IMG/VR virus record: IMGVR_UViG_3300032247_000268
Location: 1-27,486 of that record
Length of the DNA stretch: 27,486 bases
Origin: a virus
Lineage: Duplodnaviria; Caudoviricetes
Direction: 5' to 3' (one strand)
The notes beneath the pieces are model-generated. The model was not told where the DNA came from and searched no databases. It saw only the letters and a list, made by a program, of their open reading frames with translations. Every line of letters begins with the position of its first letter. Position 1 is the stretch's first letter. The translations under genes and the position numbers were made by a program. This document shows positions 1-27,486 of the stretch, in pieces.

Positions 1-173
1 CGTTGTTCATTGTGGCAAATGTTTCCAATTACCCATTGTACAATTCAAACAATTCAATTGATGACATCATCCCATCCCGTGAAAATTACAACACCGGATT
101 GGTGTTGGACAATTGTTGGGGCAAACAGACGTTTGAACAACGTTTCCAAGGGGAAAACGGGTGCAATTGTTGA
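1..173 (+). CDS. C-terminal fragment of putative head-tail adaptor (continuation of gene starting at 27170)
   Basis: Frame from position 3 reads LFIVANVSNYPLYNSNNSIDDIIPSRENYNTGLVLDNCWGKQTFEQRFQGENGCNC to TGA at 171-173. It resembles the C-terminus of Bacteroidota phage connector proteins. Confidence 0.6.
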   Translation, partial: LFIVANVSNYPLYNSNNSIDDIIPSRENYNTGLVLDNCWGKQTFEQRFQGENGCNC

Positions 174-218
174 TTTGTATGCATAAAAAAAACCAAGATA
201 AAATAAAAAAGTTGTGGC

Positions 219-1043
219 ATGAAAAGTTGGAATTCAGTGAAAAAAGCGTTGTTGGAGTTTTCCCGGATTCATCCGTTGGTGAATTCGTTTGGAACGGGCC
301 GAATAACGGACACAAATTCCGCAAAAATCGTGAATTTCGTTGATGCAGATGTTGACCGGATATACTATCCATTGGTTTTTGCATCACCGGACAATGCCAC
401 GTTGAATTCCGGATATTGCCAATTGAATTGTGGTTTGTTTTTCATGGATAAAGTTGAGGAATTCCAAAAATTGGCGGATGGTCCAACCACGGCGGATGGT
501 GTTGATTTGCAACAATTACAACCGGATGAAATCATGTCGGACATGTTGCAATTGGCAACGGATTATGTTTCCCAATTTACCAACAATTATGATTTGGAAT
601 TGGTGGGTTCACCATCGGTGACATTTTTTGATGATGTATTTTCGGACCGGGTTGCCGGTTGCCGGGTTCAATTCAATTTAGCCATCCCATTTGGTCCAAG
701 TATTTGCGCCATTCCAAGTTCCACCGGTCCGTTTTGGTTTTATTACGGGGCAACGGAAACGGGAATCATTGGTGATTTTTGGGATGGGAATTCGTTTTCC
801 ATCCGGCCGGGAATTGAAATTGAAATTGATTCCTTTGATTCCGGTGCAACACAAAACATGTCATTGTGGTTTGCCATCCCATCAACCATTTCCGTGACCA
901 ATTGGCGACGTTCATTGATTGACCGGGGGTTGATATCCACATTGTTCAATTTAATTGATACAACAACCCACAATGGGGTTGTGTATGATGTTTATATTTC
1001 CAATTGGCAAACCAATGCCACAACCCAAATGACATTGTATTGA
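219..1043 (+). CDS. Putative tail terminator/completion protein with extra C-terminal domain
   Basis: 274 aa. The N-terminal ~165 aa (HPLVNSFGTG, YPLVF, SDMLQLATD, FSDRVAG, CAIP) resemble the protein following the adaptor in Bacteroidota phages. Called from position and motif recall. Confidence 0.5.
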   Translation: MKSWNSVKKALLEFSRIHPLVNSFGTGRITDTNSAKIVNFVDADVDRIYYPLVFASPDNATLNSGYCQLNCGLFFMDKVEEFQKLADGPTTADGVDLQQLQPDEIMSDMLQLATDYVSQFTNNYDLELVGSPSVTFFDDVFSDRVAGCRVQFNLAIPFGPSICAIPSSTGPFWFYYGATETGIIGDFWDGNSFSIRPGIEIEIDSFDSGATQNMSLWFAIPSTISVTNWRRSLIDRGLISTLFNLIDTTTHNGVVYDVYISNWQTNATTQMTLY

Positions 1044-1044
1044 C

Positions 1045-2718
1045 ATGATAAATTTGACCGACAATTTTAATTTAAACAAACCGGCCCATTTGGATGCCCG
1101 TGTTGGGCCGTGGGAATCGGTGAATGATGCAACAACCAATGTTCCATTTGACCAACGTGAAATTGGTTTGACCATTGTTGTTGATGATGGTTCCGGGGCC
1201 GTTGAATATTGGTGGAAAGAGGGTTTGAGCAATGGGGATTTGGAATTGAAAACATCCGGTGGTGGTGGTGGCGGTGTTGCATGGGGTGGAATTACCGGGA
1301 CATTATCAAATCAAACGGATTTGGACACGGCATTGACTAATTTGTCAAATGACATCACCACAATTGATGGGGAAATTGCCACAATTCAAAGTGAAATCAC
1401 CACAATTCAAGGTGATATTTCAACCATTCAATCAAACATCACCACCATTGATGGCCAAATTTCGGACATTGAAACGGCATTGGATGGGAAATTTGACAAC
1501 CCAACAGGAACAACGGCCCAATATTTGGATGGTGTTGGAACACCAACCGATTTTCCAACGACCGGACAATCCGGGACATTGGTTCGGGAAATCCGAAATC
1601 AAACCGGGGCAACATTGACAAAAGGAACGGCGGTGTATATTACAGGAGCATCCGGAAATAAAGCCGTTGTGTCAAAAGCCATTGCAACCGGTGACACGAC
1701 ATCCGCACAAACATTTGGATTGATTCAAGCGGATATACCAAACAACCAAAATGGATTTGTTGTGGTTCGGGGGGATTTGGCCGGTTTGAATACATCCGCA
1801 TTTACAGAGGGCGCACAATTGTATTTGAGTTCAACCACGGCCGGTGGATTGACCATGACAAAACAATACGCACCAAACCATTTGGTCTATATTGGTATTG
1901 TCACACGTGTCCATGTGAACCAAGGTTCAATAGAAGTGGCCATCCAAAATGGTTATGAATTGAACGAATTGCATGATGTTTCAGCACAAACACCAACCAA
2001 TCGGAATGGATTGTTTTTCAATTCAACAACCAATTTGTGGGAATCCCGTGCCATTGCCGGGGCGGATTTGCCATCCGGAATTGATGCAACAAAATTGGCA
2101 AATGGAAACGTTTCCAATGCGGAATTCCAAACATTGGATGGTGTGACATCATCAATTCAAACACAATTGAATTACAAAGAATCAACCATCACGGCCGGGA
2201 CAACATCACAATTTTTCCGTGGTGATAAAACATTCCAACCATTGCCAAAAGTAACATTCCCAACCCTACATTTTAGCGGTTCGGCATTGGCCGGGAATTT
2301 CGGAAATGGTGTTGAGGGTGTGATACAAACATTGTCAATTCCGGCAAATACATTGGCATCCGGTGACATCATCCGATTGGGGTTCATGTATTCGTTTTCC
2401 GGAAACGTTGGGACAAAATCACCACGAATAAGATTTGGAAATAACACCACAACCGGGAATTCCATTTTTATTCCGGCATCACAAGGGGCATCCGTTACAA
2501 ACATTCAAGGTGAATTGTTCATGATTGTGACATCATCAACCAATTTGCGGATTTGGTCAACAACAAGTGTGACCGGGTTTGGGACAACAACATCCGCATT
2601 GACAAACAACACAATTGATTTGACACAACCAATTCCATTTTCATTCAACGTAAATAAGGCAACCGGAACGGACACGGCAATTTTGGAATCGGTATTTATT
2701 GAAATTTTGAAACCATGA
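1045..2718 (+). CDS. Fibre/receptor-binding protein with trimeric coiled coil
   Basis: 557 aa, Thr/Gly/Ser-rich. Contains a GGGGGG linker, WGGITGTLSNQTDL motif, Ile heptads, an RNQTGATLTKGTAVYI domain and a beta-rich C-terminus. Lies just before the holin. Confidence 0.75.
   Translation: MINLTDNFNLNKPAHLDARVGPWESVNDATTNVPFDQREIGLTIVVDDGSGAVEYWWKEGLSNGDLELKTSGGGGGGVAWGGITGTLSNQTDLDTALTNLSNDITTIDGEIATIQSEITTIQGDISTIQSNITTIDGQISDIETALDGKFDNPTGTTAQYLDGVGTPTDFPTTGQSGTLVREIRNQTGATLTKGTAVYITGASGNKAVVSKAIATGDTTSAQTFGLIQADIPNNQNGFVVVRGDLAGLNTSAFTEGAQLYLSSTTAGGLTMTKQYAPNHLVYIGIVTRVHVNQGSIEVAIQNGYELNELHDVSAQTPTNRNGLFFNSTTNLWESRAIAGADLPSGIDATKLANGNVSNAEFQTLDGVTSSIQTQLNYKESTITAGTTSQFFRGDKTFQPLPKVTFPTLHFSGSALAGNFGNGVEGVIQTLSIPANTLASGDIIRLGFMYSFSGNVGTKSPRIRFGNNTTTGNSIFIPASQGASVTNIQGELFMIVTSSTNLRIWSTTSVTGFGTTTSALTNNTIDLTQPIPFSFNVNKATGTDTAILESVFIEILKP
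1354..1479 (+). repeat. Six degenerate 21-bp (heptad) coding repeats
   Basis: ITTIDGE IATIQSE ITTIQGD ISTIQSN ITTIDGQ ISDIETA; the DNA repeats cacaatt/caccatt with a 21-nt period. Confidence 0.85.
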
Positions 2719-2864
2719 TGAAAGTTTATGCAATTACATTGGTGGATGGTTCCACCGAATATGATTTGAATTTGGTGGATGCCATGTCATTGTATCAACC
2801 CGGATGCCGTTTGTGGGAATCCACCAATGGCGGTGTTTCATACTTTGAAATTGAACCATCATGA
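2715..2864 (+). CDS. Small hypothetical protein, 49 aa (below ORF-track cutoff)
   Basis: MMKVYAITLVDGSTEYDLNLVDAMSLYQPGCRLWESTNGGVSYFEIEPS. Fills the gap exactly, with ATGA overlaps to both neighbours. Confidence 0.75.
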   Translation: MMKVYAITLVDGSTEYDLNLVDAMSLYQPGCRLWESTNGGVSYFEIEPS

Positions 2865-3271
2865 AATCATGGATGATTCATTTGTGGATTGGAGTGGTGG
2901 CATTTTTATCACCATTGATTCCATTGGCATTGTTGGTGTCCACATTGATTGGTGTTGATTTTGTTTTTGGAATTTACAGGGCATACAAAAACGGGGATGA
3001 AATAAGTTCCCGGAAAATGGGGCATTCGATTTCAAAGATATTTTTGTACAACATGGCCGTTTTGTCGGTGTTCATGTTGGAAAAAATCATCATTGGGACC
3101 AATTTGGAGTTCACCAAAATTTGTGTTGGTGTGATTGCCATGGTTGAATTGAAATCCATTGATGAATCATTCAAATTGTTGTATGGGTTTTCAATTTATG
3201 AATCCATCATCAAAAATTTGAAACGTGGAATAAGTGAAACAAAACCCAATAAAAATGAAAAAAACAAATGA
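2861..3271 (+). CDS. Holin (phage holin 4-like)
   Basis: About three hydrophobic segments, D-x-x-x-GI..A.K.G..ISSRK...SISK...Y and ELKSIDE motifs, and a basic C-terminus. Confidence 0.8.
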   Translation: MKSWMIHLWIGVVAFLSPLIPLALLVSTLIGVDFVFGIYRAYKNGDEISSRKMGHSISKIFLYNMAVLSVFMLEKIIIGTNLEFTKICVGVIAMVELKSIDESFKLLYGFSIYESIIKNLKRGISETKPNKNEKNK

Positions 3272-3485
3272 AATGGGTGTTTTGGAACGTTTGAACGGAC
3301 CAACACCAAAATTTTTCAAAAAAGTTCAAACCATGGGAATCATTGCCGGTTCCGTTGGTGCAATGATTTTGGCATTTCCGGTTGGATTGCCCGTGGCTAT
3401 TGTGAATGTTGCCGGTTATTTGATTGCATGTGGCGGAATTATGGCCGGAACATCACAATTTGCGGTTGATGATTCAAAAAAATGA
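3255..3485 (+). CDS. Small two-TM membrane protein, possible second lysis protein
   Basis: PTPKFFKK followed by two hydrophobic helices, a pattern common in Bacteroidota phages. Start may be 3255 or 3273. Confidence 0.65.
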   Translation: MKKTNEMGVLERLNGPTPKFFKKVQTMGIIAGSVGAMILAFPVGLPVAIVNVAGYLIACGGIMAGTSQFAVDDSKK

Positions 3486-3595
3486 ACTATATTTGAAACG
3501 ATGAATTCCATTCATTGTTTTTGATTGATGGCCGTGGTTTTGCCATGGCCATTGTTTTTGTTTTGATAGTGTTTTTCATGTAGTTTTTTTTGGAG

Positions 3596-3629
3596 TGTGG
3601 CCAATTGTGAAATTCGCCACATTTTTTTT
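3596..3629 (+). terminator. Intrinsic terminator closing the late operon
   Basis: TGTGGCcAATT-GTGA-AATTcGCCACA stem with a GNRA loop, followed by T8. Confidence 0.8.
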
Positions 3630-3715
3630 GCCCGAAAAATCTTTGTTTTTGATGGTGTTTTGACACAATTTGCAAAAATCGCAAATCTTTTATTGAATTT
3701 ATTTTGTTCAAAGTA

Positions 3716-3745
3716 TTGCACAATTCATTTTGTGTGTTACCTTTG
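3716..3745 (+). promoter_or_regulatory. Bacteroidota-type housekeeping promoter (early)
   Basis: TTG (3716-3718), 19-nt spacer, TACCTTTG (3738-3745) matching the TAnnTTTG -7 consensus. Lies 24 nt before ATG 3770 in the largest intergenic gap. Confidence 0.75.
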
Positions 3746-3769
3746 TTTTATAGTTAAACAATCAAAACA

Positions 3770-4075
3770 ATGGAAAACACATTAAACAAACCAAATCAAA
3801 TTGTTGAAATCCCAACGTTGAATTCGTATGAACAATTCCAAAAAAACAGAAGTAAAGCGGATATGTTGGGAGAGGAACATTGCCCATGTTGTGGCAAATT
3901 ATTGTTGAATCCAAAATATTTTGTGCAATCAATTTATGGTGGTTGTATGTATCCCAAAAATGACAAAAAATTTTACAATGATGCATGGATTGTGGGCATT
4001 GGTTCGGAATGCAGAAAACAAATTCCATCGGAATATCTAATGACACAATCCGATTTGAAAGATTGCACAATCTAA
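3770..4075 (+). CDS. Hypothetical early protein, possible Zn-binding
   Basis: 101 aa with CPCCGK and a distal IGSEC motif; A-rich leader. Confidence 0.75.
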   Translation: MENTLNKPNQIVEIPTLNSYEQFQKNRSKADMLGEEHCPCCGKLLLNPKYFVQSIYGGCMYPKNDKKFYNDAWIVGIGSECRKQIPSEYLMTQSDLKDCTI

Positions 4076-4132
4076 AATCAAACAAATGGGGGGTGCGCAT
4101 CCACAACGCACAAAAAATCAAAAATCAAAAAC

Positions 4133-4318
4133 ATGAAAAAACAAATTGAAATCATGCATTTCCCAACACGAACGTTGGATGTGCGCACATTCCCAACCGA
4201 AAAAATGGCCCAACAACATTTCCGTGAATTTGCGGATTTCCACAACCTTGACATTGATGGTGACATGGCCGGTGGAATTGGATTCGATTACCGGGTAACA
4301 TTAACCGAAATTGATTGA
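4133..4318 (+). CDS. Hypothetical protein
   Basis: 61 aa with an ATCAAAAAC-ATG leader and genome-typical codon usage. Confidence 0.7.
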   Translation: MKKQIEIMHFPTRTLDVRTFPTEKMAQQHFREFADFHNLDIDGDMAGGIGFDYRVTLTEID

Positions 4319-4321
4319 ACC

Positions 4322-4477
4322 TTGAACCAAACACAAACAACCATTTGGGGATTGGCAACATTGTTCATTTTCCTAATCACCAAAAACCCATTTACCATGA
4401 TATACATGGTTTTCATTGGGGCCTACATTTCAAAACGTATTGCAGATAAAAAAACCAAAAGACATGAAAACAAATAA
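4322..4477 (+). CDS. Small membrane protein, 51 aa (TTG start)
   Basis: MNQTQTTIWGLATLFIFLITKNPFTMIYMVFIGAYISKRIADKKTKRHENK: hydrophobic hairpin with a basic tail; fills the intergenic gap. Confidence 0.55.
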   Translation: MNQTQTTIWGLATLFIFLITKNPFTMIYMVFIGAYISKRIADKKTKRHENK

Positions 4478-4802
4478 CATGAATATCCCAAATTTAAATT
4501 CGATTGGACATCATGATGGTGATTCCGGTTGGTCATTTACCATCAAACCATTGGATGGGAATTCGGTGTCAAATCACATGTTGTGGGATATTTACCACAT
4601 TGCCAAAAATTTTGATTGGTATTCGGATGAATCATTGTTGGATGAATTGAATTGGTCATTGAAGTATTGCAACGAATACACAACAACCATTGCCCATTCA
4701 CCAAAATTCACCATGGACATTGATGAAACGGAATTCACATTTGAATTCCAATTGAACCGAAACGAAAACAATTTTTTAATCACATTTAATTTCAAAAAAT
4801 GA
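4464..4802 (+). CDS. Hypothetical protein
   Basis: Open frame; ATG at 4464 or 4479 is preferred over TTG at 4416. Confidence 0.7.
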   Translation: MKTNNMNIPNLNSIGHHDGDSGWSFTIKPLDGNSVSNHMLWDIYHIAKNFDWYSDESLLDELNWSLKYCNEYTTTIAHSPKFTMDIDETEFTFEFQLNRNENNFLITFNFKK

Positions 4803-5014
4803 AAAGAGAAATCAACAAAATCCGGGTGGGCCGGAAAAAAATTCAACCCAACGTGTCCGATGCATTGGCCATTGATTTGGAATACAACCGGGTAAAAAAA
4901 GGTTATCGGATTGCAGATTTGCCAATCAGTCAACCCACATACCGAAAATGCATCATTAATGGGGTAATTTCGCCGGACAAATTAGAAGTCATCAAACATT
5001 TTTTGTTGGATTGA
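4799..5014 (+). CDS. Small basic protein, possible Cro/XRE-like HTH regulator
   Basis: RVKKGYRIADLPISQPTYRKCIING..PDKLEVI loosely fits the XRE pattern. Confidence 0.45.
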   Translation: MKREINKIRVGRKKIQPNVSDALAIDLEYNRVKKGYRIADLPISQPTYRKCIINGVISPDKLEVIKHFLLD

Positions 5015-5045
5015 TTTGGAAAAAAGAATTGAACAAATAAATTTG
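5015..5045 (+). promoter_or_regulatory. Bacteroidota-type housekeeping promoter
   Basis: TTTG (5015-5018), 19-nt spacer, TAAATTTG (5038-5045): a perfect consensus match 21 nt before ATG 5067. Confidence 0.8.
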
Positions 5046-5066
5046 CAAAACCAAAAAAACAATTTA

Positions 5067-5729
5067 ATGGAAAACACAATCAAATCATTGGCCAAATCAT
5101 TGGTCAAAGCACAATCCACCATTGCCGGGGCAATCATGGATTCAAACAACCCATTTTTCGGTTCCAAGTATGCGGATTTGGAATCCGTGACCATGGCAAT
5201 CAAAAAACCATTGGCGGAAAACGGGTTGGGATATGTTCAACGGGTTCACCGGGAAAACAATTTTGTTGGGGTTGAAACCATCATCATTCATGAATCCGGG
5301 GAAACATTTTCAAATGGTGTCACATGGGTTCCCGTTACCAAAAACGATGCCCACGGATTTGGGGCCGGTTTGACGTATGCCCGGCGGTATTCATTGGCAT
5401 CATGTTTTGGTGTTATTCAAACGGATGATGATGGCAATGGGGCCATTGGCAACACAACGGCAAATGCGCCCGTTTCAAAGGCCAAAACAAACCAAGGTGG
5501 CCCAAAGTATGGCAACACTAAAAACGAACCAACCACGGCCAAAAAAACGGATGATGTTCCGGTCAAAAGAAAACCAACACCGGAATTGACCAAACAGGTG
5601 ATTGAACGTTGGTTGGGTGGTGAATTGGATGTTGTGCAAAAAGCAAATGAATTCATTGAAGTGGACCAAACCATGATGGATGAATTTTACATTGCAACCG
5701 GTGTTGAATGGAGTTTAAAAACAAAATAA
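5067..5729 (+). CDS. erf: ERF-family single-strand annealing recombinase
   Basis: NPFFGSKYADL, HESGE, GFGAGLTYARRYSL and DDDGN hallmark motifs. Start moved to ATG 5067, downstream of the promoter. Confidence 0.92.
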   Translation: MENTIKSLAKSLVKAQSTIAGAIMDSNNPFFGSKYADLESVTMAIKKPLAENGLGYVQRVHRENNFVGVETIIIHESGETFSNGVTWVPVTKNDAHGFGAGLTYARRYSLASCFGVIQTDDDGNGAIGNTTANAPVSKAKTNQGGPKYGNTKNEPTTAKKTDDVPVKRKPTPELTKQVIERWLGGELDVVQKANEFIEVDQTMMDEFYIATGVEWSLKTK

Positions 5730-5739
5730 AATCAAAACA

Positions 5740-6123
5740 ATGGAAACACAAATCAAAAAAGTTGGTGAGGACATCAAAATTGTAATCACCATTAATGCAA
5801 TCGAATTGGCCAAAATGATTGGCCCATCACAAACGGAATTGTTTGAAATGGAAACCCAAATGGAATCAAAGGAAAACCCATTCAAATACATTCAAATTCA
5901 CACAAGATTTTTTATTCAAGATTTAATTAAAGAATTTGGAATCAATTGTTGGATTCAACGGGATGAACCAATTGTCAACAAATTACGATGGTTTCATACC
6001 ATTGCAGATGTTCCACAAATTTTCAAACGTTTTAGTGAAAATGGATGGATGGATGTTGAATACAACCAAAACAAAACCCGAATCATCCGTTTCAAATTTA
6101 ATGACAATGCCCAATGGACATGA
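5740..6123 (+). CDS. Hypothetical protein
   Basis: 127 aa with an ATCAAAACA-ATG leader. Confidence 0.75.
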   Translation: METQIKKVGEDIKIVITINAIELAKMIGPSQTELFEMETQMESKENPFKYIQIHTRFFIQDLIKEFGINCWIQRDEPIVNKLRWFHTIADVPQIFKRFSENGWMDVEYNQNKTRIIRFKFNDNAQWT

Positions 6124-6584
6124 TTATCACAACCGAAAAATTGTTGGATTCAATTTCCGGCAAATCATCCGTGAATGCATTAGCAGAGGCAATGACATTC
6201 AACATTCAAGAGGGCATTACCAACCCATTGGAATTCCGTGTCAAAGCAAAAATGGTGATTGATGCGTTGGAAAATGCAATCAAAATGACCAATGATGATG
6301 CCATGGTTGAACAAATGAAATATGGCAAACGTTCGGAAATGTTTGGGGCCGTGATTGATTCCGTGGAAACAGGTGTCAAATACGATTACCAATCCACCAA
6401 TTGCCCGGAATGGGAACGTTTTGATGAAATGGTCAAACACTATTCCGAATTAAAAAAGCAACGGGAAACGTTTTTGAAGTCATTGAAAGAACCATTAAAC
6501 ATCATCACCGATGATGGAGAAATTGTGACCATCAACCCACCAATCAAAAGTTCAACAACGGCATTGAAAATCACATTGAAATGA
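6120..6584 (+). CDS. Conserved hypothetical phage protein
   Basis: NPLE, ETGVKYDY, RETFLKSL and DGEIVTINPPIKSS pattern recalled from Bacteroidota phages near recombinases. Start 6114 or 6120 (ATGA overlap). Confidence 0.75.
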   Translation: MIITTEKLLDSISGKSSVNALAEAMTFNIQEGITNPLEFRVKAKMVIDALENAIKMTNDDAMVEQMKYGKRSEMFGAVIDSVETGVKYDYQSTNCPEWERFDEMVKHYSELKKQRETFLKSLKEPLNIITDDGEIVTINPPIKSSTTALKITLK

Positions 6585-6805
6585 CAACGGCAAAATGGAA
6601 AAAAATGGTGGATGATTATGATTTCATCCACCGGATTTTGAACAATGAATCCAATGGCAAAAAACACAATGATGGAATCATCCGAACCATTGAATTGTTT
6701 TTGGACAAACACAAAACCCAATTATTACAACCGGAATCCCATTCGATGTTGGTTGATTTGTCAACCCGGTTGCAACAAAAGTTCAACAACAAAAAATTCA
6801 ATTGA
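6581..6805 (+). CDS. Hypothetical protein
   Basis: 74 aa with overlap coupling at both ends. Confidence 0.7.
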   Translation: MTTAKWKKMVDDYDFIHRILNNESNGKKHNDGIIRTIELFLDKHKTQLLQPESHSMLVDLSTRLQQKFNNKKFN

Positions 6806-7017
6806 TGGCAATTTTGACAAAACCCGAAAAATCAAAATACAAACACGTTTATGTTGTACGTGCGCAAGGAAAATGGTATTACCAATCATCTATTTTTGTT
6901 GATGGCAAACATACAACCCGAAATTTTGACAATGAACATGATGCCGGTAAATGTGTTGACATGAATTTGATTGGCCGTGGATTGCAACCCGTGAACGTAT
7001 TAAAACCCAAAAAATGA
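6805..7017 (+). CDS. Stand-alone AP2-like DNA-binding protein
   Basis: SKYKHV....GKWYYQSSIFVDGK....FDNEHDAGKCVD matches the AP2 domain pattern (SKYKGV..GKW.A.I..GK...F..EEEAA.AYD). Confidence 0.7.
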   Translation: MAILTKPEKSKYKHVYVVRAQGKWYYQSSIFVDGKHTTRNFDNEHDAGKCVDMNLIGRGLQPVNVLKPKK

Positions 7018-7226
7018 ACTATAAACAACCACAACACGTTGAAGACATCGAATCATTGAAATGGCGGATGTCTTATTTGGAAAACCAATTGACCGGTGAA
7101 ATGAATGATGAACAATTTGCCATCCGGGATGAAATCAACCAAATCAAAATCACAATTTATCAATTCAACCATCCACCACAAAAACCGGATGATTCAAATT
7201 TTGAATGTTTTGGTTGTGGTTCCTAA
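7014..7226 (+). CDS. Small coiled-coil protein with terminal CxxCGS
   Basis: 70 aa ending KPDDSNFECFGCGS-stop. Confidence 0.75.
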   Translation: MNYKQPQHVEDIESLKWRMSYLENQLTGEMNDEQFAIRDEINQIKITIYQFNHPPQKPDDSNFECFGCGS

Positions 7227-7232
7227 AATCGG

Positions 7233-7264
7233 AAATGGTGTGTAAATTGCACACCATTTTTTTT
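7233..7264 (+). terminator. Intrinsic terminator before replication genes
   Basis: AAATGGTGTG-TAAATTG-CACACCATTT perfect 10-bp stem followed by a T-run. Confidence 0.75.
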
Positions 7265-7277
7265 CAAAATCAAAACA

Positions 7278-7973
7278 ATGAATGGGTATAAATTAACCAA
7301 ACAATTGGTTCAAATGGTTCATCACCGGCAAATTTCATGGGGTGGATTCGGATTCGGTGTGTATTTGGTGGAATTGGCAAACAAATCCCGGTCCATCGAA
7401 TTTCCCGTGAATGCCGTTGACATTTCCCATGATACGGGGTTATCCCGAACCACCATCCGTGGGTTCATCAAAGAATTGCAGTCAAGTGGATTCATTACAA
7501 AATCATCACAAAAGTCAACGTACAACATCACCAAATTCACCATCAATGGATGGACAAAAATTGACCAACCGGTTGAACAAAAATTGACCATCCAAAATGA
7601 ATCAGTTGGACAATCAGTTGAACAAAATTTGACCAACCACACCATATATAAAGAAGAAAACTTAAAAACATTAACTAATAGTAGTAAGAGAGAAAAAACG
7701 ATTGATGATTTTTGGGATGAATTTTTGAACCAAGATTTGCATTGGCACCGGTTCCGGGATGCCCACCAAATTGACCGGGAAACATTGGAACAAAAACACA
7801 TCGAATTCAAAAAAACATCCGTGTCCAAAGGTGCAACCTACCCACGTATCCATTTGGCCAATTCACATTTTTTCAATTGGTTCATGTCCACAAAAAAGTA
7901 CGAAAAAAAATCCGGTGGAAAATATGATGGTAAAAGCCCGGCGGAATGGATGCGAGAAAACGGAATGATTTGA
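7278..7973 (+). CDS. Replication initiator (lambda O/DnaD-like architecture)
   Basis: N-terminal winged HTH (DISHDTGLSRTTIRGFIKELQSSGFI), repetitive linker with DNA iterons, and a C-terminal helical domain (HFFNW). Confidence 0.75.
   Translation: MNGYKLTKQLVQMVHHRQISWGGFGFGVYLVELANKSRSIEFPVNAVDISHDTGLSRTTIRGFIKELQSSGFITKSSQKSTYNITKFTINGWTKIDQPVEQKLTIQNESVGQSVEQNLTNHTIYKEENLKTLTNSSKREKTIDDFWDEFLNQDLHWHRFRDAHQIDRETLEQKHIEFKKTSVSKGATYPRIHLANSHFFNWFMSTKKYEKKSGGKYDGKSPAEWMRENGMI
7551..7695. repeat. Putative replication origin: three 20-bp iterons plus AT-rich tract
   Basis: TGGACAAAAATTGACCAACC (7551-7570), TGAACAAAAATTGACCATCC (7574-7593), TGAACAAAATTTGACCAACC (7619-7638), two AATCAGTTG copies, then A/T-rich 7644-7697. 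Confidence 0.7.
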
Positions 7974-9134: not shown

Positions 9135-9464
9135 ATGATGACAACACGAACCAAATACAACAACCGAAAAACAAATGTTGATGGGATTGTTTTTGATAGC
9201 AAAAAAGAGGCGCAAAGGTATGGGGAATTGAAAATGCGGGAAATGGTCGGTGACATCATTGATTTGAAATTACAAGTTCCATTCGGATTCACATTGCCGG
9301 GGGATTCAAAACCCGTTTTCAAATACATTGCGGATTTTGTTTATTTGGACCGGACCAACGGCCAATTCAAAATTGAAGATGTCAAAGGATTCAAAACACC
9401 ATTGTACAAACTGAAAAAAAAATTGATTGAAAAACAATTCAACATCAAAATCATTGAAATATGA
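9135..9464 (+). CDS. DUF1064-family PD-(D/E)XK nuclease-like protein
   Basis: KYNNRKT.VDGIVFDSKKEA.RY.EL, LQVPF, YIADFVY and EDVKG..T..Y.LKKKL motifs. Confidence 0.9.
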   Translation: MMTTRTKYNNRKTNVDGIVFDSKKEAQRYGELKMREMVGDIIDLKLQVPFGFTLPGDSKPVFKYIADFVYLDRTNGQFKIEDVKGFKTPLYKLKKKLIEKQFNIKIIEI

Positions 9465-9673: not shown

Positions 9674-9874
9674 ATGAAACAACCAACGGCGGTGGATTGG
9701 TTATTTGAAAACATACTAATGACACCATTGGACATCCGTTCAATCAACAAATGTTATTTGCAAGCCAAGGAAATGGAATTGGAACAAATAATCAAAGCAT
9801 TCAATGAGGGAACGTTTGCCAATGATGAAAAGGTAAATGCCGAACAATACTACAATCAAACATTTGAAAAATGA
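9674..9874 (+). CDS. Conserved small Bacteroidota phage protein
   Basis: MKQ.TAVDWL...QAKEME.EQII.A...AEQYYNQTF pattern. Confidence 0.75.
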   Translation: MKQPTAVDWLFENILMTPLDIRSINKCYLQAKEMELEQIIKAFNEGTFANDEKVNAEQYYNQTFEK

Positions 9875-10323
9875 ATATTAGCAAACACATAACGTTTGAA
9901 GAGGCAACAAAATCCAACACGGCAACCCGGTTGGGTATTGATAACAACCCATCACCGGAAATCATTGAAACCATGAAAGCCACAGCGGAAAACGTTTTTG
10001 AACCAATCCGGAAACAATGTGGGCCAATCCGGATTTCATCATTTTACCGGTCACCGGAATTGAACCGGGCCATTGGTGGTGCAAAGATTTCCCAACATTG
10101 CAAAGGTGAGGCAATTGACATCCAAGGCATCAACGTGACCAATGCGGAATTGTTCCGGGTTGCATGTGAGTTGGACCAATTCGACCAAATAATTTGGGAA
10201 TTCGGGACATTGACCGAACCGGATTGGGTACATGTATCATTCAAAAAAGATGGCAACCGGAAACAGGTTTTGAGAGCCACAAAGATTGGCAAACGTACAA
10301 CATACGTTCCGCACCGACCATGA
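9871..10323 (+). CDS. Peptidase M15A-family endolysin
   Basis: ISSFYRSPELNRAIGG, SQHCKGEAID (Zn ligands H and D), DQIIWEF, WVHVS. Confidence 0.9.
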   Translation: MNISKHITFEEATKSNTATRLGIDNNPSPEIIETMKATAENVFEPIRKQCGPIRISSFYRSPELNRAIGGAKISQHCKGEAIDIQGINVTNAELFRVACELDQFDQIIWEFGTLTEPDWVHVSFKKDGNRKQVLRATKIGKRTTYVPHRP

Positions 10324-10674: not shown

Positions 10675-11547
10675 ATGAAAGTCAACACAAACATCATTCA
10701 CACGAAAGTCAATTTCGACCAAGGCCGGTATTTGTCATTGCTAATTTCGGACATACATTTTGACAACCCGAAATGTCGCCGTGACCTATTGAAAAACCAT
10801 TTGGAAACGGCCGTTGAACGTGGTGCCAAAATCCGCATCAATGGGGATTTTTTCTGCATCATGCAAGGCAAATATGACAAACGGGCATCAAAGGACCAAT
10901 TAAGGCCGGAACATGTTGGGCCGAACTATTTTGATTTGGTTGTTGATGAGGCAATTGAATGGTTCACACCATTTGCACATCACATTGAATGGATTTCGTA
11001 TGGCAACCATGAAACATCGGTTTTGAAACGAAATGAAATTGATGTGTTGAAACGTTTTGTGGATGGTATCAATTCCAAAACAGGTTCAACCATCAAATTG
11101 GGTGGATATGGTGGATGGGAGTGTTTTTCCGTTTCAAAGGGTGGTCATTCATCCAAATTCAATTTGAAATACATGCATGGATTTGGCGGTGGTGGACCGG
11201 TGACAAAAGGAACCATTCAGCATTCCCGGATGCAAACCATGGTGAACAATGCGGATGTTGTTTGGATGGGACACGTTCATGAATTGTACATCATGGCATC
11301 GGTTAAGGAATCCGCACATTATGGGAAATCATTGCACATCCGTCACAATGTTTCATGGGATATTCGCACACCAACATACAAAGATGAATTCATTGATGGT
11401 TCACATGGATGGCATATTGAACGGGGCGCACCACCGAAAATCATTGGTGGCATTTGGATGGACATGGGATGGAAACGAATTCAACGTGGTGGGGATGATG
11501 TGGTGGTATCGGATTTTGTTTTTTCGCCGTGTGTTGGTTATATTTGA
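10675..11547 (+). CDS. Calcineurin-like metallophosphoesterase
   Basis: All five motifs present: SDIH, NGDFF, GNHE, MHG, GHVH. Confidence 0.9.
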   Translation: MKVNTNIIHTKVNFDQGRYLSLLISDIHFDNPKCRRDLLKNHLETAVERGAKIRINGDFFCIMQGKYDKRASKDQLRPEHVGPNYFDLVVDEAIEWFTPFAHHIEWISYGNHETSVLKRNEIDVLKRFVDGINSKTGSTIKLGGYGGWECFSVSKGGHSSKFNLKYMHGFGGGGPVTKGTIQHSRMQTMVNNADVVWMGHVHELYIMASVKESAHYGKSLHIRHNVSWDIRTPTYKDEFIDGSHGWHIERGAPPKIIGGIWMDMGWKRIQRGGDDVVVSDFVFSPCVGYI

Positions 11548-13657: not shown

Positions 13658-14085
13658 AAAATTTGCCGGAAAATTGGGGGAAAAATGGGTTGAAACAAAA
13701 CCCACAAAACATCAACCGAAATGGGCGACCAAAAAAGATTGAAAACGTGGTGGGTGAATTGTTCGCCACGGAATTCAATTTGAGGTTGTCTAAATCACAA
13801 TGCCATGAAATCATTGAATCATTGTTGACCATGACACATGGCCAAATCACCAAATTGGGTGAACGGGATGATGTCCCATTTTGGATGAAAATGATTGCAA
13901 AAAAAATGGAACGTGACATGAACCGGGGTTCCGTTCATTTGATGGAAATTTTGTTTGACCGGGTATTTGGCAAACCAAAAGAAACCATTGACACAATCAA
14001 TTCATCACCGGAACCATTCATCCAAATTGATGTTGTTTCATCCGAAATCCCATTGGCAAATTCAGAAAATCAAATCATTGAATGA
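13654..14085 (+). CDS. terS: Terminase small subunit (putative)
   Basis: NRNGRPKK (DUF5681-like) and DRVFGKPKE; coupled to terL. Confidence 0.65.
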   Translation: MKNLPENWGKNGLKQNPQNINRNGRPKKIENVVGELFATEFNLRLSKSQCHEIIESLLTMTHGQITKLGERDDVPFWMKMIAKKMERDMNRGSVHLMEILFDRVFGKPKETIDTINSSPEPFIQIDVVSSEIPLANSENQIIE

Positions 14086-15245
14086 TGTTCAAAACATCGG
14101 TGATTTTTGAAAAAAACTATTCATCCACGGCCAAAATTGTCATCAACCAAGGTGGGACAAGTTCCGGGAAAACCTATTCCATTTTGCAATGTCTGTTTCT
14201 CAAATGCATTGAAATGGCACCGGAATTGAACAACAAAGTTGTGACCATTGTTGGTCAAGATATTCCCAACCTAAAATCCGGTGCGTTGAGGGATGCCCAA
14301 AATATTTTGAACACATCACCGGAATTGCAAAAATGGGTTCAATCATACAATTCCACGGAACGGATTTTCACATTTGTGAATGGGGCCACAATGGAATTCA
14401 AATCATTTGATGATGGACAAGATGCCAAATCCGGAAAACGGATGTTTGCATTTTTCAATGAAGCAAACGGGATTTCCAAATCCATTTTTGATGAAATATA
14501 CATCCGAACGGAAAAACAAACGTTCATTGATTACAACCCGAATGCCCGGTTTTGGGTTCATGATGAATTGATACCATTGCCGGAATCCGAATTGATTATT
14601 TCGGACCATCGCCACAACCCATTTTTGTCCGATGAAACACGGATGAAAATTGAAAATTTGAAAAACCGGGACATGGAATTGTGGCGTGTTTATGCCCGTG
14701 GCATGACAGGGAAAATTGAGGGTTTGATATTCCGGAATTGGTTTGTGGTTGATGCCATCCCATCCCATTGTGAATTGGTTGCATACGGATTGGATTGGGG
14801 TTGGAATCCGGATCCAACGGCCATGGTGGGAGTTTACAAAGGTGATGGGCAATTGTGGGTTGACCAATTGTTGTACACCAATGAAAAATTGAACACGGAT
14901 TTGATTGCATATTTGAATGAAATTGGATTCGATAAAACACACCAAATCATTGCAGATTCGAGCGAAAAAAAATCAATAGAGGAATTCCGGCGGTCCGGGT
15001 TCCGAATCATGGGTGTTTCCAAACCATCCGGTTCCATCCAATACGGAATTGATGTGTTGAAACGTTACCAAATAAACATCACCAAACATTCCAAACAAAT
15101 CATTGATGAATTCAACAATTACAAATGGGATGAACGGATGGGGGGAAAACCCGTGGACAAATTCAACCACGGAATTGATGCCATCCGATACGTTGCCATG
15201 ACAAAATTGGGAATCACAAACAAGGATAACTACCACATATTATGA
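14082..15245 (+). CDS. terL: Terminase large subunit (PBSX/SPP1-like)
   Basis: Walker A GGTSSGKT, Walker B FFNEA, DYNP coupling motif, nuclease GLDWG..DPTA and HGIDAIRY. Confidence 0.96.
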   Translation: MMFKTSVIFEKNYSSTAKIVINQGGTSSGKTYSILQCLFLKCIEMAPELNNKVVTIVGQDIPNLKSGALRDAQNILNTSPELQKWVQSYNSTERIFTFVNGATMEFKSFDDGQDAKSGKRMFAFFNEANGISKSIFDEIYIRTEKQTFIDYNPNARFWVHDELIPLPESELIISDHRHNPFLSDETRMKIENLKNRDMELWRVYARGMTGKIEGLIFRNWFVVDAIPSHCELVAYGLDWGWNPDPTAMVGVYKGDGQLWVDQLLYTNEKLNTDLIAYLNEIGFDKTHQIIADSSEKKSIEEFRRSGFRIMGVSKPSGSIQYGIDVLKRYQINITKHSKQIIDEFNNYKWDERMGGKPVDKFNHGIDAIRYVAMTKLGITNKDNYHIL

Positions 15246-23275: not shown

Positions 23276-24223
23276 ATGAGTTACACATTTACAGCACCAT
23301 TAACGCAGTACACTAACCAAAATGTATTGCCATTGATTACCAAATCATTGTTTGATGCCCGTACAATTTCACTAATCAACAAACAAGTTGGTTTGAAAGG
23401 TCCATCAACATTGAATTTGATGACCGAAACCACATCATTTGCGTATGGTTATGGTTGTGGGTTCACATCAAACGTTGGAACCAATGCAACCGATTTCACA
23501 CAACGCACAATCAACATTGTTGATGTCAAGGTATATGAATCGTTATGCCCAAAGGCCTTGCAACAATATTGGATGCAATCACAATTGCCATCCGGTTCCA
23601 TGTTGACAACCATTCCATTTGAGGAACAATATGCCACAATGAAAGTAAAGGCCATCCAAAAGGCATTGGAAACGGCCGTGTGGACCGGTACCGGTTCCGG
23701 CAATTCAATCACCGGGTTTGTGTCAATTTTGTCCGGTGTTACGGATTGGAATGCAACCGTTTCCGGATGGACAACATTGACATTGGCGGATTTGACCGGT
23801 TCATCCGGCGGTGCAAATGTCATCAAAATGTTGAACCGAATTGAAGCCAACATCGTGGCGGATATTCGTGGGGCGGATGATGTTGTCATTTTTTGTGGCA
23901 TGGACATGTTCACCATCATCAAACAAGGTTTGGTGGCGCAAAACTATTTCAACATTTCATATTTGAACGGGGTTGAAACATACGAATTGACATTGCCCGG
24001 TTCAAACATTCGTTTGATTGGTGTGAATGGTTTGAACACATCAAATGATTTGTATTTTGGCCGTTTGTCTAACTTCTATTTCGGAACCGATTTATTGGGT
24101 GAAGAGGAAAAATTTGAAATTTTCTACGCAAAAGAGGCGGATGAAGTACGTTTCATGTGCGAATTCAAAGCCGGTGTACAAGTTGCATTCACCGACCAAG
24201 TTGGCCGTTTCATGATTGCATAA
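23276..24223 (+). CDS. Major capsid protein
   Basis: 315 aa after the scaffold; CGF, FTQRTI, ESLCPKAL, W.G and FGTDLL motifs; followed by a terminator. Confidence 0.85.
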   Translation: MSYTFTAPLTQYTNQNVLPLITKSLFDARTISLINKQVGLKGPSTLNLMTETTSFAYGYGCGFTSNVGTNATDFTQRTINIVDVKVYESLCPKALQQYWMQSQLPSGSMLTTIPFEEQYATMKVKAIQKALETAVWTGTGSGNSITGFVSILSGVTDWNATVSGWTTLTLADLTGSSGGANVIKMLNRIEANIVADIRGADDVVIFCGMDMFTIIKQGLVAQNYFNISYLNGVETYELTLPGSNIRLIGVNGLNTSNDLYFGRLSNFYFGTDLLGEEEKFEIFYAKEADEVRFMCEFKAGVQVAFTDQVGRFMIA

Positions 24224-24868: not shown

Positions 24869-25237
24869 ATGCAATTGTTGAATTCCGGAGAAAACCAACG
24901 TTTGTTTTTCACGGCCACGGAAAACATGGTGAGTGGAAATTATTTGTATTTGTTGATTGAACATATTTCAACCAATGAATCATTTTTTTTGTCATTCCCA
25001 AAATCCGCAAACGTGTCAACATACACCGACCGGTGGGATGGGTTTGATGTTACAATCCCAAACATTCCCATTGGCCAATGTCGGTATTCACTTTACGAGG
25101 GTGAAACCGGTGCAATATCGGTTGATTCGCCGGAAATTACCCGAATGATTGAATGCGGATTGTACCAAGTTTTGACAAATGAATCAACGGATTTCACAAT
25201 TGAAAATCCAATCACATATTTTGAACCGACAATATGA
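24869..25237 (+). CDS. Hypothetical virion protein
   Basis: 122 aa from ATG 24869 (the longer ORF-track start crosses the terminator); ATGA-coupled to the portal. Confidence 0.7.
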   Translation: MQLLNSGENQRLFFTATENMVSGNYLYLLIEHISTNESFFLSFPKSANVSTYTDRWDGFDVTIPNIPIGQCRYSLYEGETGAISVDSPEITRMIECGLYQVLTNESTDFTIENPITYFEPTI

Positions 25238-27162
25238 AAAGTGAATACGCCATTGTAACATCACCGGCCGTGTCTAATCGGACACAAATGAAATTTGAAT
25301 TGGCCATGCCCGTTTTCAAGGTGGTGACCGGAAATGATTTTGTTGTGTATGGTGAAGACAACAAATTCCCAATGTATTTGTTGGAAATGTACCAACGTTC
25401 CGCAAAACACAACGCCATCATCAATGGAAAAGTCAATTACATTTTCGGTGGTGGGTTCACATACGACACAAACAAATTGACCGATGAAATGATTGGGCAA
25501 TTGGGGGATTTCATGGAGAATCCAAACCCATTTGATTCAATGAATGATGTGTTGCGAAAAACCATCATGGACAATGAAATTTTCAATGGTTATGCATTGG
25601 AAATTGTTTGGTCATTGGGTGGCAAAATTTCATCCATTTCCCACGTTCCATTCCATGAATGCCGTGTGTCGGTGGATGGCAAAAAAATTGGCCGTTCAAA
25701 ATTGTGGGATGGCAACCGGAAACCAAAGGATTTGGAAATTTTTGACCGATTCAACCCGGAACAAAGATTGGGAAAACAAATTTTCTATGTGGTGACATAT
25801 TCCCCGAATTGTTATCATTACCCAATCCCAGAATATTTCGGGGCCATGGCATACATTGAAAGTGATTCCCGAATTGCCAATTTCCACGTTCAAAATTTGC
25901 GGAATGGGTTTTTGGGTGGATTCGTTTTCCAATTCAACAACGGGGTTCCATCCATCGAAAAACAACGTGAAATTGAACGCAAAGTCAAATCAAAATTTGG
26001 TGGTGATGATGGTGAACGCATAATGGTTGAATTCACGGATGGGGCGGAATACGGCATGAAATTGATTCCGGTTCAAGCCAATGATTTGGACAAACAATTT
26101 GACATTTTAAACGAATCAATCCAACAGGAAATTTTCACGGCGCACCGGGTTACATCCGGAATGTTGTTTGGGATTAAGGAATCCGGCCAATTGGGTGGCC
26201 GTTCGGAGTTGGTTGAATCATACGAATTGTTCAAATCGGTGTATGTCAAAGACAGGGCAAATGAACAAATCCGTTCATACAATTATTTATTGTCATTCAA
26301 TGGTTTTGGCAATGTGTTGGAAATTATCCCAACCGAACCAATCAAAGAACAATTAAGTGAAACAACGTTGTTGCAAATTGCATCCCGTGGTGAATTACGT
26401 ACCATGATGGGATTGCCCGATGATACAATTGAAGTTCCAAAAACCACCGATTCCATCCAATCATTGTCACCATTGGTTGCGAATAAGGTATTGGAAAAAT
26501 TGACCGATGGGGAAATACGTTCATTGGTTGGATTATCACCAACACCACAAACATTTTCATCCGTGGATGATGATGATTTGTTGATTGCAGAATTTGAAAA
26601 CCATGGGGAATGCCAATCGGGTTTTGAATTATTGAAATCCCGGCCAATGCGATATGGGTTTGAATTGAAAGAAAATGAATTCAAATCGGATTATGAAGAT
26701 ATTGACAAACAAATTGTCAAGAAAATAGACAAAAACCCAAACATTTCATCGGATACCATTGCATCCGAATTGGGTTTGGACATTGATTTGGTTTCCGAAC
26801 GAATTTCCGCATTGATTGAAAATGGTTCCATCAAAGTGACCGGGACATTGAAAGAAATTGGGGAACCGGCAAAAGATTGGGTTAAGTCAAAGGACATGAC
26901 ACAAATGTTGGAAATTCGGTACAAGTACGATGTGTTGCCGGAATACGGGCCAAAATTGTTGGAAACATCCCGTAAATTTTGCCAATACATGATTGAAAAA
27001 AACCGGTATTACACACGTGAGGAAATCAACCAAATTTCCGCAAAGATGGGGTATTCGGTATGGGAACGCCGGGGTGGATTTTACACCGACAAAAAAACCG
27101 GATTGACACGGCCGTCATGCCGTCACATTTGGGTTCAAACATTAGTGAAAAAACGTAATTGA
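25234..27162 (+). CDS. Portal protein with C-terminal extension
   Basis: YGEDN.FP.YL, SAKHNAII, YP.PEY, NLRNGF and IFTAHRVTS.MLFGI motifs; about 200 extra residues at the C-terminus. Confidence 0.85.
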   Translation: MKSEYAIVTSPAVSNRTQMKFELAMPVFKVVTGNDFVVYGEDNKFPMYLLEMYQRSAKHNAIINGKVNYIFGGGFTYDTNKLTDEMIGQLGDFMENPNPFDSMNDVLRKTIMDNEIFNGYALEIVWSLGGKISSISHVPFHECRVSVDGKKIGRSKLWDGNRKPKDLEIFDRFNPEQRLGKQIFYVVTYSPNCYHYPIPEYFGAMAYIESDSRIANFHVQNLRNGFLGGFVFQFNNGVPSIEKQREIERKVKSKFGGDDGERIMVEFTDGAEYGMKLIPVQANDLDKQFDILNESIQQEIFTAHRVTSGMLFGIKESGQLGGRSELVESYELFKSVYVKDRANEQIRSYNYLLSFNGFGNVLEIIPTEPIKEQLSETTLLQIASRGELRTMMGLPDDTIEVPKTTDSIQSLSPLVANKVLEKLTDGEIRSLVGLSPTPQTFSSVDDDDLLIAEFENHGECQSGFELLKSRPMRYGFELKENEFKSDYEDIDKQIVKKIDKNPNISSDTIASELGLDIDLVSERISALIENGSIKVTGTLKEIGEPAKDWVKSKDMTQMLEIRYKYDVLPEYGPKLLETSRKFCQYMIEKNRYYTREEINQISAKMGYSVWERRGGFYTDKKTGLTRPSCRHIWVQTLVKKRN

Positions 27163-27169
27163 TAAAAAG

Positions 27170-27486
27170 ATGGACAAGGCGTTGTTTATTACGGAAACGG
27201 ATTTGAAAAATGGAACGTTCATCAATGAAAACGTTTCCATGGTCAAGTTGCGACCATTGGTCATGATGTGTCAAGAAATGCAAATCCAACCCATCATCGG
27301 TTCCGATTTGTACGATGAAATCGGACAACAAATCATTGATGGGAATTTGTCAAATGAAAACCAAACATTGTTGTTTGAATATATCCAACCGGCATTGAAA
27401 ATGTGGGTAATGGCGGAATCACCAATGATTTTGTCATTTCGGTATGTCAACAAAAATGTTGAACGTGGGCAATCAGAAAACAACAC
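27170..27486 (+). CDS. Head-tail adaptor (putative), N-terminal part, runs off window
   Basis: MDKALFITETDLKNGTFINENV...QEMQIQPIIGSDLYDEI...YIQPAL; open to the window end. Confidence 0.7.
   Translation, partial: MDKALFITETDLKNGTFINENVSMVKLRPLVMMCQEMQIQPIIGSDLYDEIGQQIIDGNLSNENQTLLFEYIQPALKMWVMAESPMILSFRYVNKNVERGQSENN

Follow-up and report, generated by a model that had tools for sequence, protein, structure and literature searches.

Selection against AG/CT and TA in a near-complete siphophage genome, possibly reflecting host defences with very short targets

The window analysed here, that is, the whole stretch of 27,486 nt, is a near-complete 27.5-kb siphophage genome (CheckV completeness estimate 95%), likely from a phage of a Bacteroidota host. 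About 77 nt are probably absent between its end and its start, as estimated by hand with the colinear relative G001 as a guide. All genes called in the window are carried by the + strand, and no tRNAs were found in it; the main features are listed in Table 1. The gap between the late region and the following genes is inferred to be untranscribed because a terminator and a promoter-like site flank it, the latter being one that we take to resemble the Bacteroidota-type promoter consensus. When compared with named phages, the capsid protein gave no match, and a DNA search with positions 1-8000 gave one short match.

Table 1. Features of the phage genome, with positions in the window
Feature	Position	Strand	Remarks
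Whole genome	1..27486	.	Genome-wide depletion: CT 99, AG 448, TA 715
Intrinsic-terminator-like hairpin	3526..3554	+	13 pairs + T tail; ends lysis/tail part of late region
Putatively untranscribed gap	3565..3735	.	Depleted too: CT 2/9.6, TA 5/19.2, AG 4/7.4
Promoter-like site	3716..3745	+	Bacteroidota-type -33/-7, 19-nt spacer; contains one residual CT
ERF-family ssDNA annealing protein	5067..5729	+	
DUF1064 / Holliday-junction-resolvase-like nuclease	9135..9464	+	61% to the copy of unbiased relative G002
Peptidase M15 endolysin	9871..10323	+	
Metallophosphoesterase / 'DNA repair exonuclease'-like protein	10675..11547	+	Also in unbiased G002 (58%)
Terminase large subunit	14082..15245	+	Top-matching named phages infect Bacteroidota
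Major capsid protein (putative)	23276..24223	+	Sits after protease/scaffold; PHROG of unknown function
Portal protein	25234..27162	+	

A general feature of this genome is the loss of AG/CT, with a symmetrised rho of 0.166 genome-wide, 547 sites remaining and all 1-kb bins depleted. A first-pass annotation, made by eye, had described CT as nearly gone and AG as strongly reduced; the loss is stronger than was claimed (rho 0.17), and the hand counts given (1 CT and 9 AG in 1-420, none of either in 19201-19500) are exact, with about 36 expected in the second interval. TC/GA is indeed plentiful, as was noted there (rho 0.94; coding-strand GA 0.96). TA, with a rho of 0.286 across the genome, is a second purged pair, while CA/TG and CC/GG are enriched (1.5). 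UV dimers are excluded as a cause, given that TT (1.40), TC (0.94) and CC are not low, and so is a translational (tRNA) cause, since depletion is equally strong across codon junctions and in non-coding DNA (CT 6/73, AG 18/85). The codon shift that had been described was confirmed in 44 ORFs chosen by hand (8,764 codons), in which 540 of 634 Leu codons are TTG, 290 of 320 Arg codons are CGN, NCT codons number only 26, and none of 43 stops is amber. The purge has also altered the composition of the proteome: dipeptides that force the motif stand at 0.52-0.54 of expectation, versus 0.96 in the unbiased relative G002, and Tyr content is down from 4.70% to 3.44%, with Lys and Ser content maintained.

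As for the length of the word that is avoided, the depletion persists under protein-preserving nulls, a comparison already proposed in the first-pass annotation, with CT at 0.07, AG at 0.28 and TA at 0.35 of expectation, and with codon-junction z values of -26, -26 and -28, respectively, when codon usage is held as well. All 16 contexts of coding CT are at or below 0.43, and all 16 of unforced AG at or below 0.54. A single AG/CT term takes away 2,465 of 9,093 cross-validated nats and merely shifts from -1.93 to -1.91 after the addition of 37 greedy 3-6-mers, so that a few 4-6-bp sites do not account for the depletion, which resolves to 2-4 bases. Flanks on either side of the core both matter, and their effects are roughly multiplicative (additive R2 0.89 and 0.77). 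Of all trinucleotides, AG after C falls furthest below first-order expectation (0.42). The pressure on TA is a second one, separable from that on AG/CT; a single trinucleotide uniting the two was rejected, being over-represented relative to first-order expectation (1.80). The cost of CT followed by A is nevertheless non-additive (interaction +3.26), which hints at a common target base for CT and TA. Avoidance of closely opposed nicks gave no clear signal, at low power: opposite-strand pairs with gaps of 0-15 number 21 and 29 against about 26 expected each, and the only pairs missing are those directly next to each other. A greedy motif search that allowed full degeneracy yielded terms without a clear interpretation.

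The depletion could in principle come from mutation alone, biased by sequence context and without any selection on the motifs, and the enriched CA/TG and CC/GG pairs are what transitions would make of TA and AG. However, at 785 synonymous polymorphisms across 10 haplotypes, after control for the direction of base change and with gene-bootstrap intervals, motif-bearing alleles skew to low frequency, the minor-allele log-odds being +1.29 (0.53-2.06) for CT, +0.62 (0.12-1.11) for AG and +0.59 (0.24-0.92) for TA. CT, AG and TA are thus under present-day purifying selection, which acts against AG/CT in both orientations. Loss has moreover occurred by several routes, including transversions: where both unbiased relatives have a Ser codon of the AG-starting box, Ser is retained in the window at 43 of 84 sites, and 35 of these 43 carry a codon of the other box, a switch that takes two transversions. 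Together with the maintained Lys and Ser content, this bears out the earlier preference for selection over mutation, and the mutation-only reading, already largely refuted, is the least probable of those considered here.

Syntenic relatives at 49-68% capsid identity do not have the bias. AG/CT is also purged in a separate lineage (G409, L390), and in trees built on the major capsid protein the purged clades are non-monophyletic (p-AU 1e-60). The G409/L390 lineage has lost AG/CT independently of the window, and a host-side cause is therefore indicated. The coding-CT flank profile is common to the window and G409 (Spearman 0.73-0.76), while that of L390 is different and weakly anti-correlated; TA is normal in L390, and the TA pressure is found in the window's clade only. 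Because flank profiles vary among purged lineages, a single enzyme reading plain duplex AG is not established. The first-pass annotation had recognised no methylase, and we found no family match either in the 44 ORFs or, for two families, in a six-frame search. Having no methylase is not enough to bring about the purge, and methylase loss as its trigger is unsupported: G002 has two methylases, but the complete relative G413 has neither searched family and is unbiased. Another possibility is that a phage-encoded nuclease cuts host DNA at AG/CT and the phage protects itself by losing the sites. Two nuclease-like genes are present in the genome, in which no methylase was found, and the chlorovirus nickases are a virus-encoded precedent (PMC3017599). 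Yet both nuclease-like genes are also present in unbiased G002, no gene was found that is present in both the window and G409 but missing from unbiased relatives, and the small clade-specific ORFs gave no family match above the cut-off, which makes this explanation very improbable.

The rarity of CT relative to AG had been attributed to forced Lys/Glu/Gln-then-G junctions. These make up 244 of 433 coding AG and explain the difference in part, but the asymmetry remains in unforced counts (CT 85/977, AG 180/1099) as well as in the penalties of a codon-chain model (-3.35 for CT vs -2.23 for AG). The coding-strand asymmetry is thus real and not just a codon artefact, and genome-strand and transcription effects are inseparable because all called genes lie on one strand. 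L390 is strand-symmetric (-1.23/-1.24). In G409 (0.69-0.71) and in L390 (0.52) the flank profiles of the two strands mirror each other, with palindromic sites and Arg codon shifts as confounders in G409; in the window they do not (Spearman -0.23 to -0.19).

Asymmetry of this kind could be the work of a host anti-phage toxin that modifies or cleaves single-stranded nucleic acid with a loose dinucleotide preference, hitting T after C or before A, with the more exposed strand purged more. On exposed ssDNA this could be a deaminase or a DarT-like ADP-ribosyltransferase, and on mRNA an enzyme similar to CmdT or an RNase. Such a toxin would fit the strong excess of the coding-strand CT penalty in the window (-4.33 vs -2.29) and in G409 (179/1099 vs 871/1120), the multiplicative flank effects, as expected of a low-specificity enzyme, and the non-additivity of CT and TA. 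On the other hand, coding-strand AG is selected against as well, the putatively untranscribed gap is depleted, and L390 is symmetric with normal TA. Anti-phage toxins of the DarT/CmdT kind usually work through abortive infection, so that little would be gained per removed site. According to the available text of the two sources, DarT2 and CmdT are anti-phage enzymes with 2-4-base single-strand preferences, and CmdT, which acts on GA in mRNA, shows that targeting at the dinucleotide level exists (PMC9967889; 10.1101/2024.02.24.581662). However, neither the T-rich ssDNA motifs of DarT2 nor the GA of CmdT described there is depleted in the window, where TT, TC and GA are abundant. A toxin is thus an unlikely, though not far-fetched, cause.

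The phage could also simply mirror the chromosome of an unsampled host with the same signature, and a common host would make independent lineages converge. One order is mildly low, with AG/CT of 0.59-0.64 at its low end and TA of 0.38-0.42 in G395. In a sample of 401 genomes from one class, however, all 401 Bacteroidia have CT-repeat pattern counts far above those expected at rho 0.17, the lowest AG/CT measured directly being 0.59, and 0.72 in 40 Chitinophagales stretches. Ongoing selection would, in addition, still be in need of a cause, and we consider such amelioration quite improbable. The generic host bias that the first-pass annotation had set against its own reading was found in no Bacteroidia chromosome among the 401 screened, a sample that need not include the phage's own host. 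Among 185,579 species genomes, the capsid profile matched five loci, including a prophage in Chitinophaga polysaccharea (37%), with hits in 2 of 301 Chitinophagales and 0 of 35 genomes of the G395 family; neither this profile nor spacer searches yielded a host, and no enzyme that could be responsible for the purge was found. Erosion of CRISPR PAMs, with an AG-like PAM (plus a TA-containing one) lost site by site over long coevolution, would account for a target of 2-4 bases in dsDNA that spares the host chromosome and varies among hosts, which would suit the differing flank profiles, and a TA-containing type II-C PAM is described for Flavobacterium columnare in the accessible part of PMC8092290. 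But both core flanks matter, none of 16 short matches lay in a CRISPR-like array (436 genomes against window 1-19900; a weak test), and the depletion differences in the portion of PMC4246573 at hand are at most about 0.16 (log-ratio) versus 5- to 11-fold here, in measures that are not identical. PAM erosion is therefore improbable.

We consider it most likely, with a probability of roughly 0.45, that the AG/CT and TA loss comes from DNA-directed defences of the host population with very short, asymmetric, AG-centred targets. The part of the first-pass reading that invoked a host defence directed at a very short motif is supported by selection, by a bias that none of the screened Bacteroidia chromosomes shares and by convergence; a single enzyme reading plain AG is not established. 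A DNA-level target is favoured by selection on both orientations, by the depleted gap and by the strand mirror of G409 and L390. The host, enzyme class, methylation mark and orientation rule are what we infer: the host's own DNA would carry a modification on the lone A of AG, present on one strand only, and unmarked DNA would be attacked, either by a set of 3-4-base specificities with a common AG core or by one enzyme of loose specificity whose flank preference is graded, either of which would cover almost every flank context. There are probably several specificities, and orientation would matter in part, as it does in Type III or MANTIS systems. For an activity preferring inverted pairs, stripping coding-strand CT would be cheapest, as every CT is avoidable, and the forced Lys/Glu/Gln-G AGs would then remain in one orientation. 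That 547 sites have survived means that each can carry only a small, graded cost and not a lethal one. L390, being symmetric and with a different flank profile, implies that the orientation rule is not general. TA would be a second pressure limited to the window's clade. The non-additivity of CT and TA is a feature for which an AG-centred model does not account.

Avoidance of orthodox Type II sites, as presented in the available text of PMC6286503, is likewise a host-imposed loss of short motifs by synonymous change, and several classical 4-6-bp sites are also almost missing from the window, which is consistent with a restriction-rich host; a discrete-site account applies only to these. Type II sites are 4-8 bp and usually palindromic, whereas the target here is a non-palindromic two-base core in all contexts, with many remaining sites, a graded, strand-unequal penalty and amino-acid change. 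For sites of Types I, IIG and III, the same text reports that avoidance is absent or rare. Type III and MANTIS sites are asymmetric with A on one strand only, as is AG/CT, and one-strand depletion under inverted-pair systems has precedent (PMC3874151; 10.64898/2026.09.23.753747). The sites known so far are, however, 5-6 bp (same sources) and the window is depleted in both orientations; the orientation bias seen in the window and G409, and not in symmetric L390, is confounded with transcription direction. Nt.CviQII and M.CviQII (PMC3017599, PMC3299994) show that a nickase can work at the AG level and that a methylase can act on AG, but these are virus-encoded, have a eukaryotic host and protect by methylation, unlike this phage. 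Nt.CviQII, which had been put forward as a precedent (RAG), needs a purine before AG, a rule that does not hold in the window, where AG after C is depleted equally or more. The same dinucleotide, CpT(ApG), is depleted in a host-linked manner in large DNA viruses of invertebrates, although the hosts are eukaryotic and the loss is partly attributed to non-canonical methylation in the sections available of PMC4219779.

We tentatively suggest that freshwater Bacteroidota may carry an undescribed family of orientation-sensitive, dinucleotide-reading defences (directed at AG or, in sister systems, at TA, GC and CG) that has independently rewritten the codons and amino acids of several phage lineages. 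If so, dinucleotide defences would be a bacterial counterpart of eukaryotic antiviral sensing of the CpG/UpA type. Phages are known to avoid 4-8-bp restriction sites and, to a weak degree, PAMs, and a convergent, 6- to 11-fold purge of a two-base word that alters the proteome and is under measurable present-day selection would mean policing of foreign DNA at far shorter words than those catalogued. The footprint, with its core, flanks and strand, would serve as a specificity profile to be matched to environmental methylomes and defence islands and as a host-prediction signal for uncultured phages, and the enzyme behind it could be a useful frequent cutter or marker. The GC pair is lowered in the window too (rho 0.69), which, like the TA purge, had no place in the earlier account.

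The purge of CT and AG claimed in the first-pass annotation extends over the whole window: every 1-kb bin is depleted, the totals are 99 CT and 448 AG (symmetrised observed/expected ratio, rho, 0.166 by whole-window count), and the earlier hand counts were exact on recount. TC/GA is near normal (rho 0.94). Two further losses had been overlooked: TA is purged as well, with 715 sites left (rho 0.286), and GC is reduced (rho 0.69). Under the protein-preserving null suggested at that stage the depletion persists: over 44 plus-strand ORFs picked by hand (8,764 codons in all), CT, AG and TA stand at 0.07, 0.28 and 0.35 of expectation, and with codon usage also kept the junction z-scores are -26, -26 and -28, respectively. 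Non-coding DNA (1,394 nt) is depleted too (CT 6/73, AG 18/85). The capsid gene has 8 CT in 948 nt against a genome mean of 3.6 per kb, and translational selection possibly offsets the purge there. Because TA- and AG-containing stop codons have been lost, the reverse strand carries many spurious long ORFs that can mislead gene-calling software: they cover 12.4 kb, against 3-5 kb in relatives without the bias.

Coordinates of features
Sequence	Position	Feature
Window	3526..3554 (+)	terminator-like hairpin
Window	3565..3735	gap, putatively untranscribed
Window	3716-3745	promoter-like site
Window	23276-24223	capsid gene
G002	L091:2113-3126	C5 methylase
G002	L091:9627-11135	ParB-N4/N6 methylase fusion
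G002	2258-3070	second long ORF overlapping the C5 methylase gene, other frame
G409	L232:9192-12329, L227:581-1651	glycosyltransferase, NAD-dependent epimerase, Methyltransf_24 cluster
L126	1-9802	GC-purged locus
L390	1-7863	AG/CT-purged locus

Several classical 4-6-bp sites are also almost absent from the window, and a few ordinary restriction sites had been named as the account that would undo a two-base reading. A codon-chain model that takes the proteins as given has a cross-validated negative log-likelihood of 9,093, which drops to 6,628 with a single AG/CT term and to 5,943 when TA receives a term too. Since the AG/CT term is stable (-1.93 to -1.91) once 37 3-6-mers are greedily added, that account fails; the TA term is partly absorbed by flank-specific terms (-1.41 to -0.54). 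All 16 flank contexts of coding-strand CT lie at or below 0.43 of expectation, as do all 16 of unforced AG (outside unavoidable Lys/Glu/Gln-then-G junctions) at or below 0.54. The AG/CT depletion may be a stack of AG-centred 3-4-mers.

Mutation bias as the source of the depletion is hardly credible given the allele frequencies, serine codons and protein composition. Among 785 clean synonymous biallelic sites in 10 haplotypes (near-identical contigs merged), with base-change direction controlled, the motif allele is skewed towards being the minor one (log-odds CT +1.29, AG +0.62, TA +0.59, all gene-bootstrap intervals excluding zero; GC as single predictor, +0.80), and the equilibrium penalties rank alike (CT -4.33, AG -2.29, TA -2.21). 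Where both unbiased relatives use an AG-starting Ser codon, Ser is kept in the window at 43/84 sites, 35 of them switched to the other Ser box; the reverse switch occurred at 2/58. Over 27 orthologues (6,574 codons each) shared with G002, a syntenic relative that lacks the bias, Tyr falls from 4.70% there to 3.44% in the window, with 53 Tyr-to-Phe changes versus 23 reverse, and AG-forcing dipeptides stand at 0.54 of expectation versus 0.96. The AG/CT depletion, as first proposed, and the TA depletion are due to selection and not mutation. Very weak per-site selection in a large population would suffice for penalties of 2-4 log units, which is consistent with the 547 surviving AG/CT sites.

The suggested screen of relatives revealed the purge in two places, with unbiased lineages between them. 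Ten of the 85 viral loci examined first, lying on 8 contigs and all with 86-99% protein identity, carry the signature; AG/CT is 0.76-0.85 in relatives with 49-68% capsid identity and about 1.1 in distant ones. In a second purged phage, G409 (30 kb), whose capsid is 36% identical, the coding-strand ratios are 0.16 for CT, 0.60 for AG and 0.65 for TA; the 79 terminase relatives closest to it show no bias. L390, a sister of G409 with 74% capsid identity to it and the only purged case of this kind among 68 new loci, has CT 0.20, AG 0.33 and normal TA; TA pressure is separable from AG/CT pressure. A 20-row capsid tree splits the purged genomes into two clades, and the hypothesis that they form one is rejected (p-AU 1e-60; 0.0002 in an earlier 18-row tree). 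No G409 gene matched the window but not G002, and that two lineages converged with no phage gene in common suggests a cause on the host side; a nuclease encoded by the phages themselves is very improbable.

Once forced junctions are removed, the coding-strand CT penalty exceeds that of AG both in the window (CT 85/977 vs AG 180/1,099) and in G409 (179/1,099 vs 871/1,120), and the coding-CT flank profiles of the two correlate (Spearman 0.73-0.76) while being uncorrelated with those of unbiased relatives. Counting against a single rule, L390 is strand-symmetric with a different flank profile, cross-strand mirroring of profiles is present in G409 and L390 and absent in the window, a low-power count in the window shows no clear avoidance of close opposite-strand site pairs, and CT followed by A costs far less than the sum of the CT and TA penalties (in the window, C precedes Tyr codons 15 times vs T 44, and TT-starting codons 6 times vs T 251). 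All called window genes lie on one strand, so that genome-strand and transcript effects are inseparable there. It could be that a toxin acts on single strands, which we consider unlikely; the 171-nt gap between hairpin and promoter-like site is depleted of CT (2/9.6) and TA (5/19.2), less clearly of AG (4/7.4), which, if it is untranscribed, favours DNA over mRNA as the target. Erosion of CRISPR PAMs, another source of short-motif loss, is improbable. The most likely cause, at a probability of roughly 45%, would be a defence of the host that is directed at DNA and reads very short, asymmetric targets centred on AG, probably with several specificities, and with partial orientation sensitivity. 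Depletion, selection, convergence and asymmetry are demonstrated; the host, the enzyme, the mark of self and the rule of orientation are what we infer.

The purge resembles restriction-site avoidance in its working, but is pushed down to a two-base core, and it falls outside orthodox Type II avoidance, DarT2 and CmdT (ADP-ribosyltransferase toxins) and the chlorovirus CviQII system. Nt.CviQII is described as nicking R^AG and M.CviQII as modifying AG (PMC3017599, PMC3299994), Type III systems as needing inverted sites, with all 36 in T7 in a single orientation (PMC3874151), and MANTIS as leaving depletion on one strand (10.64898/2026.09.23.753747); site length sets the purge apart from Type III and MANTIS. 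Within the literature outside subscription journals, mostly judged by listings, we found no description of an AG/CT purge of comparable size in a bacteriophage. The purge is real, selected and convergent, and is explained by no described system among those testable here. It is doubtful whether a bacterial defence of a new, dinucleotide-reading class lies behind it.

The window holds nearly all of a tailed-phage genome: CheckV puts completeness at 95%, and a hand estimate against the colinear relative G001 suggests that only some 77 nt are missing. Its genes include those for a terminase, a portal, a head protease, an ERF recombinase, an M15 endolysin and a holin. The 44 ORFs match no methylase family and six-frame searches for two such families were empty, bearing out the first-pass annotation. 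The host is likely a member of Bacteroidota: 23 of the best 25 of 1,141 terminase matches are phages of Elizabethkingia, Bacteroides, Parabacteroides or Flavobacterium, the best portal matches are Nonlabens phages, and a capsid relative (37% identity) lies within a 515-kb Chitinophaga polysaccharea contig. We take the promoter-like site to be Bacteroidota-type. Six of the 11 studies containing part of the sequence carry a freshwater or lake label. Amelioration to the host signature, by which the bias would be the host's own, is quite improbable: a CT-repeat pattern occurs in 401/401 Bacteroidia genomes (two unpublished, neither decisive) and never falls below about 14 per Mb, when a rho of 0.17 would leave almost none. 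Measured directly, AG/CT reaches a minimum of 0.59 (20 stretches, 19 genomes, 17 chosen as low scorers), is at least 0.64 in another 19 members of the family to which the lowest genome belongs (one unpublished) and has a minimum of 0.72 in 40 Chitinophagales stretches. The proposed chromosome check thus places no sampled Bacteroidia genome near the phage level, within a sample outside which the inferred host may lie. The lowest-scoring genome (G395; L095, L096) has AG/CT 0.59-0.62, TA 0.38-0.42 and 43-45% GC.

Loss of particular dinucleotides seems to recur in this set of phages. L126 (portal 57% to the window) is purged of GC instead (rho 0.45, interaction -2.72) with ordinary AG/CT, and CG is the lowest dinucleotide (<0.5) in 70/273 viral loci of a redundant set (L181-L217, many of L011-L080), falling to 0.13-0.25 in endolysin relatives. 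L390, with CG rho 2.13 and low CA/TG, is very unlike G409, where CG is 0.52. The methylases of the unbiased G002 are tabulated. The G409 cluster, between terminase and structural genes, possibly serves virion or surface glycosylation. Contig names of L004, a window-clade phage, and L127, from G409, bear the same record-set number, and the two phages may co-occur.
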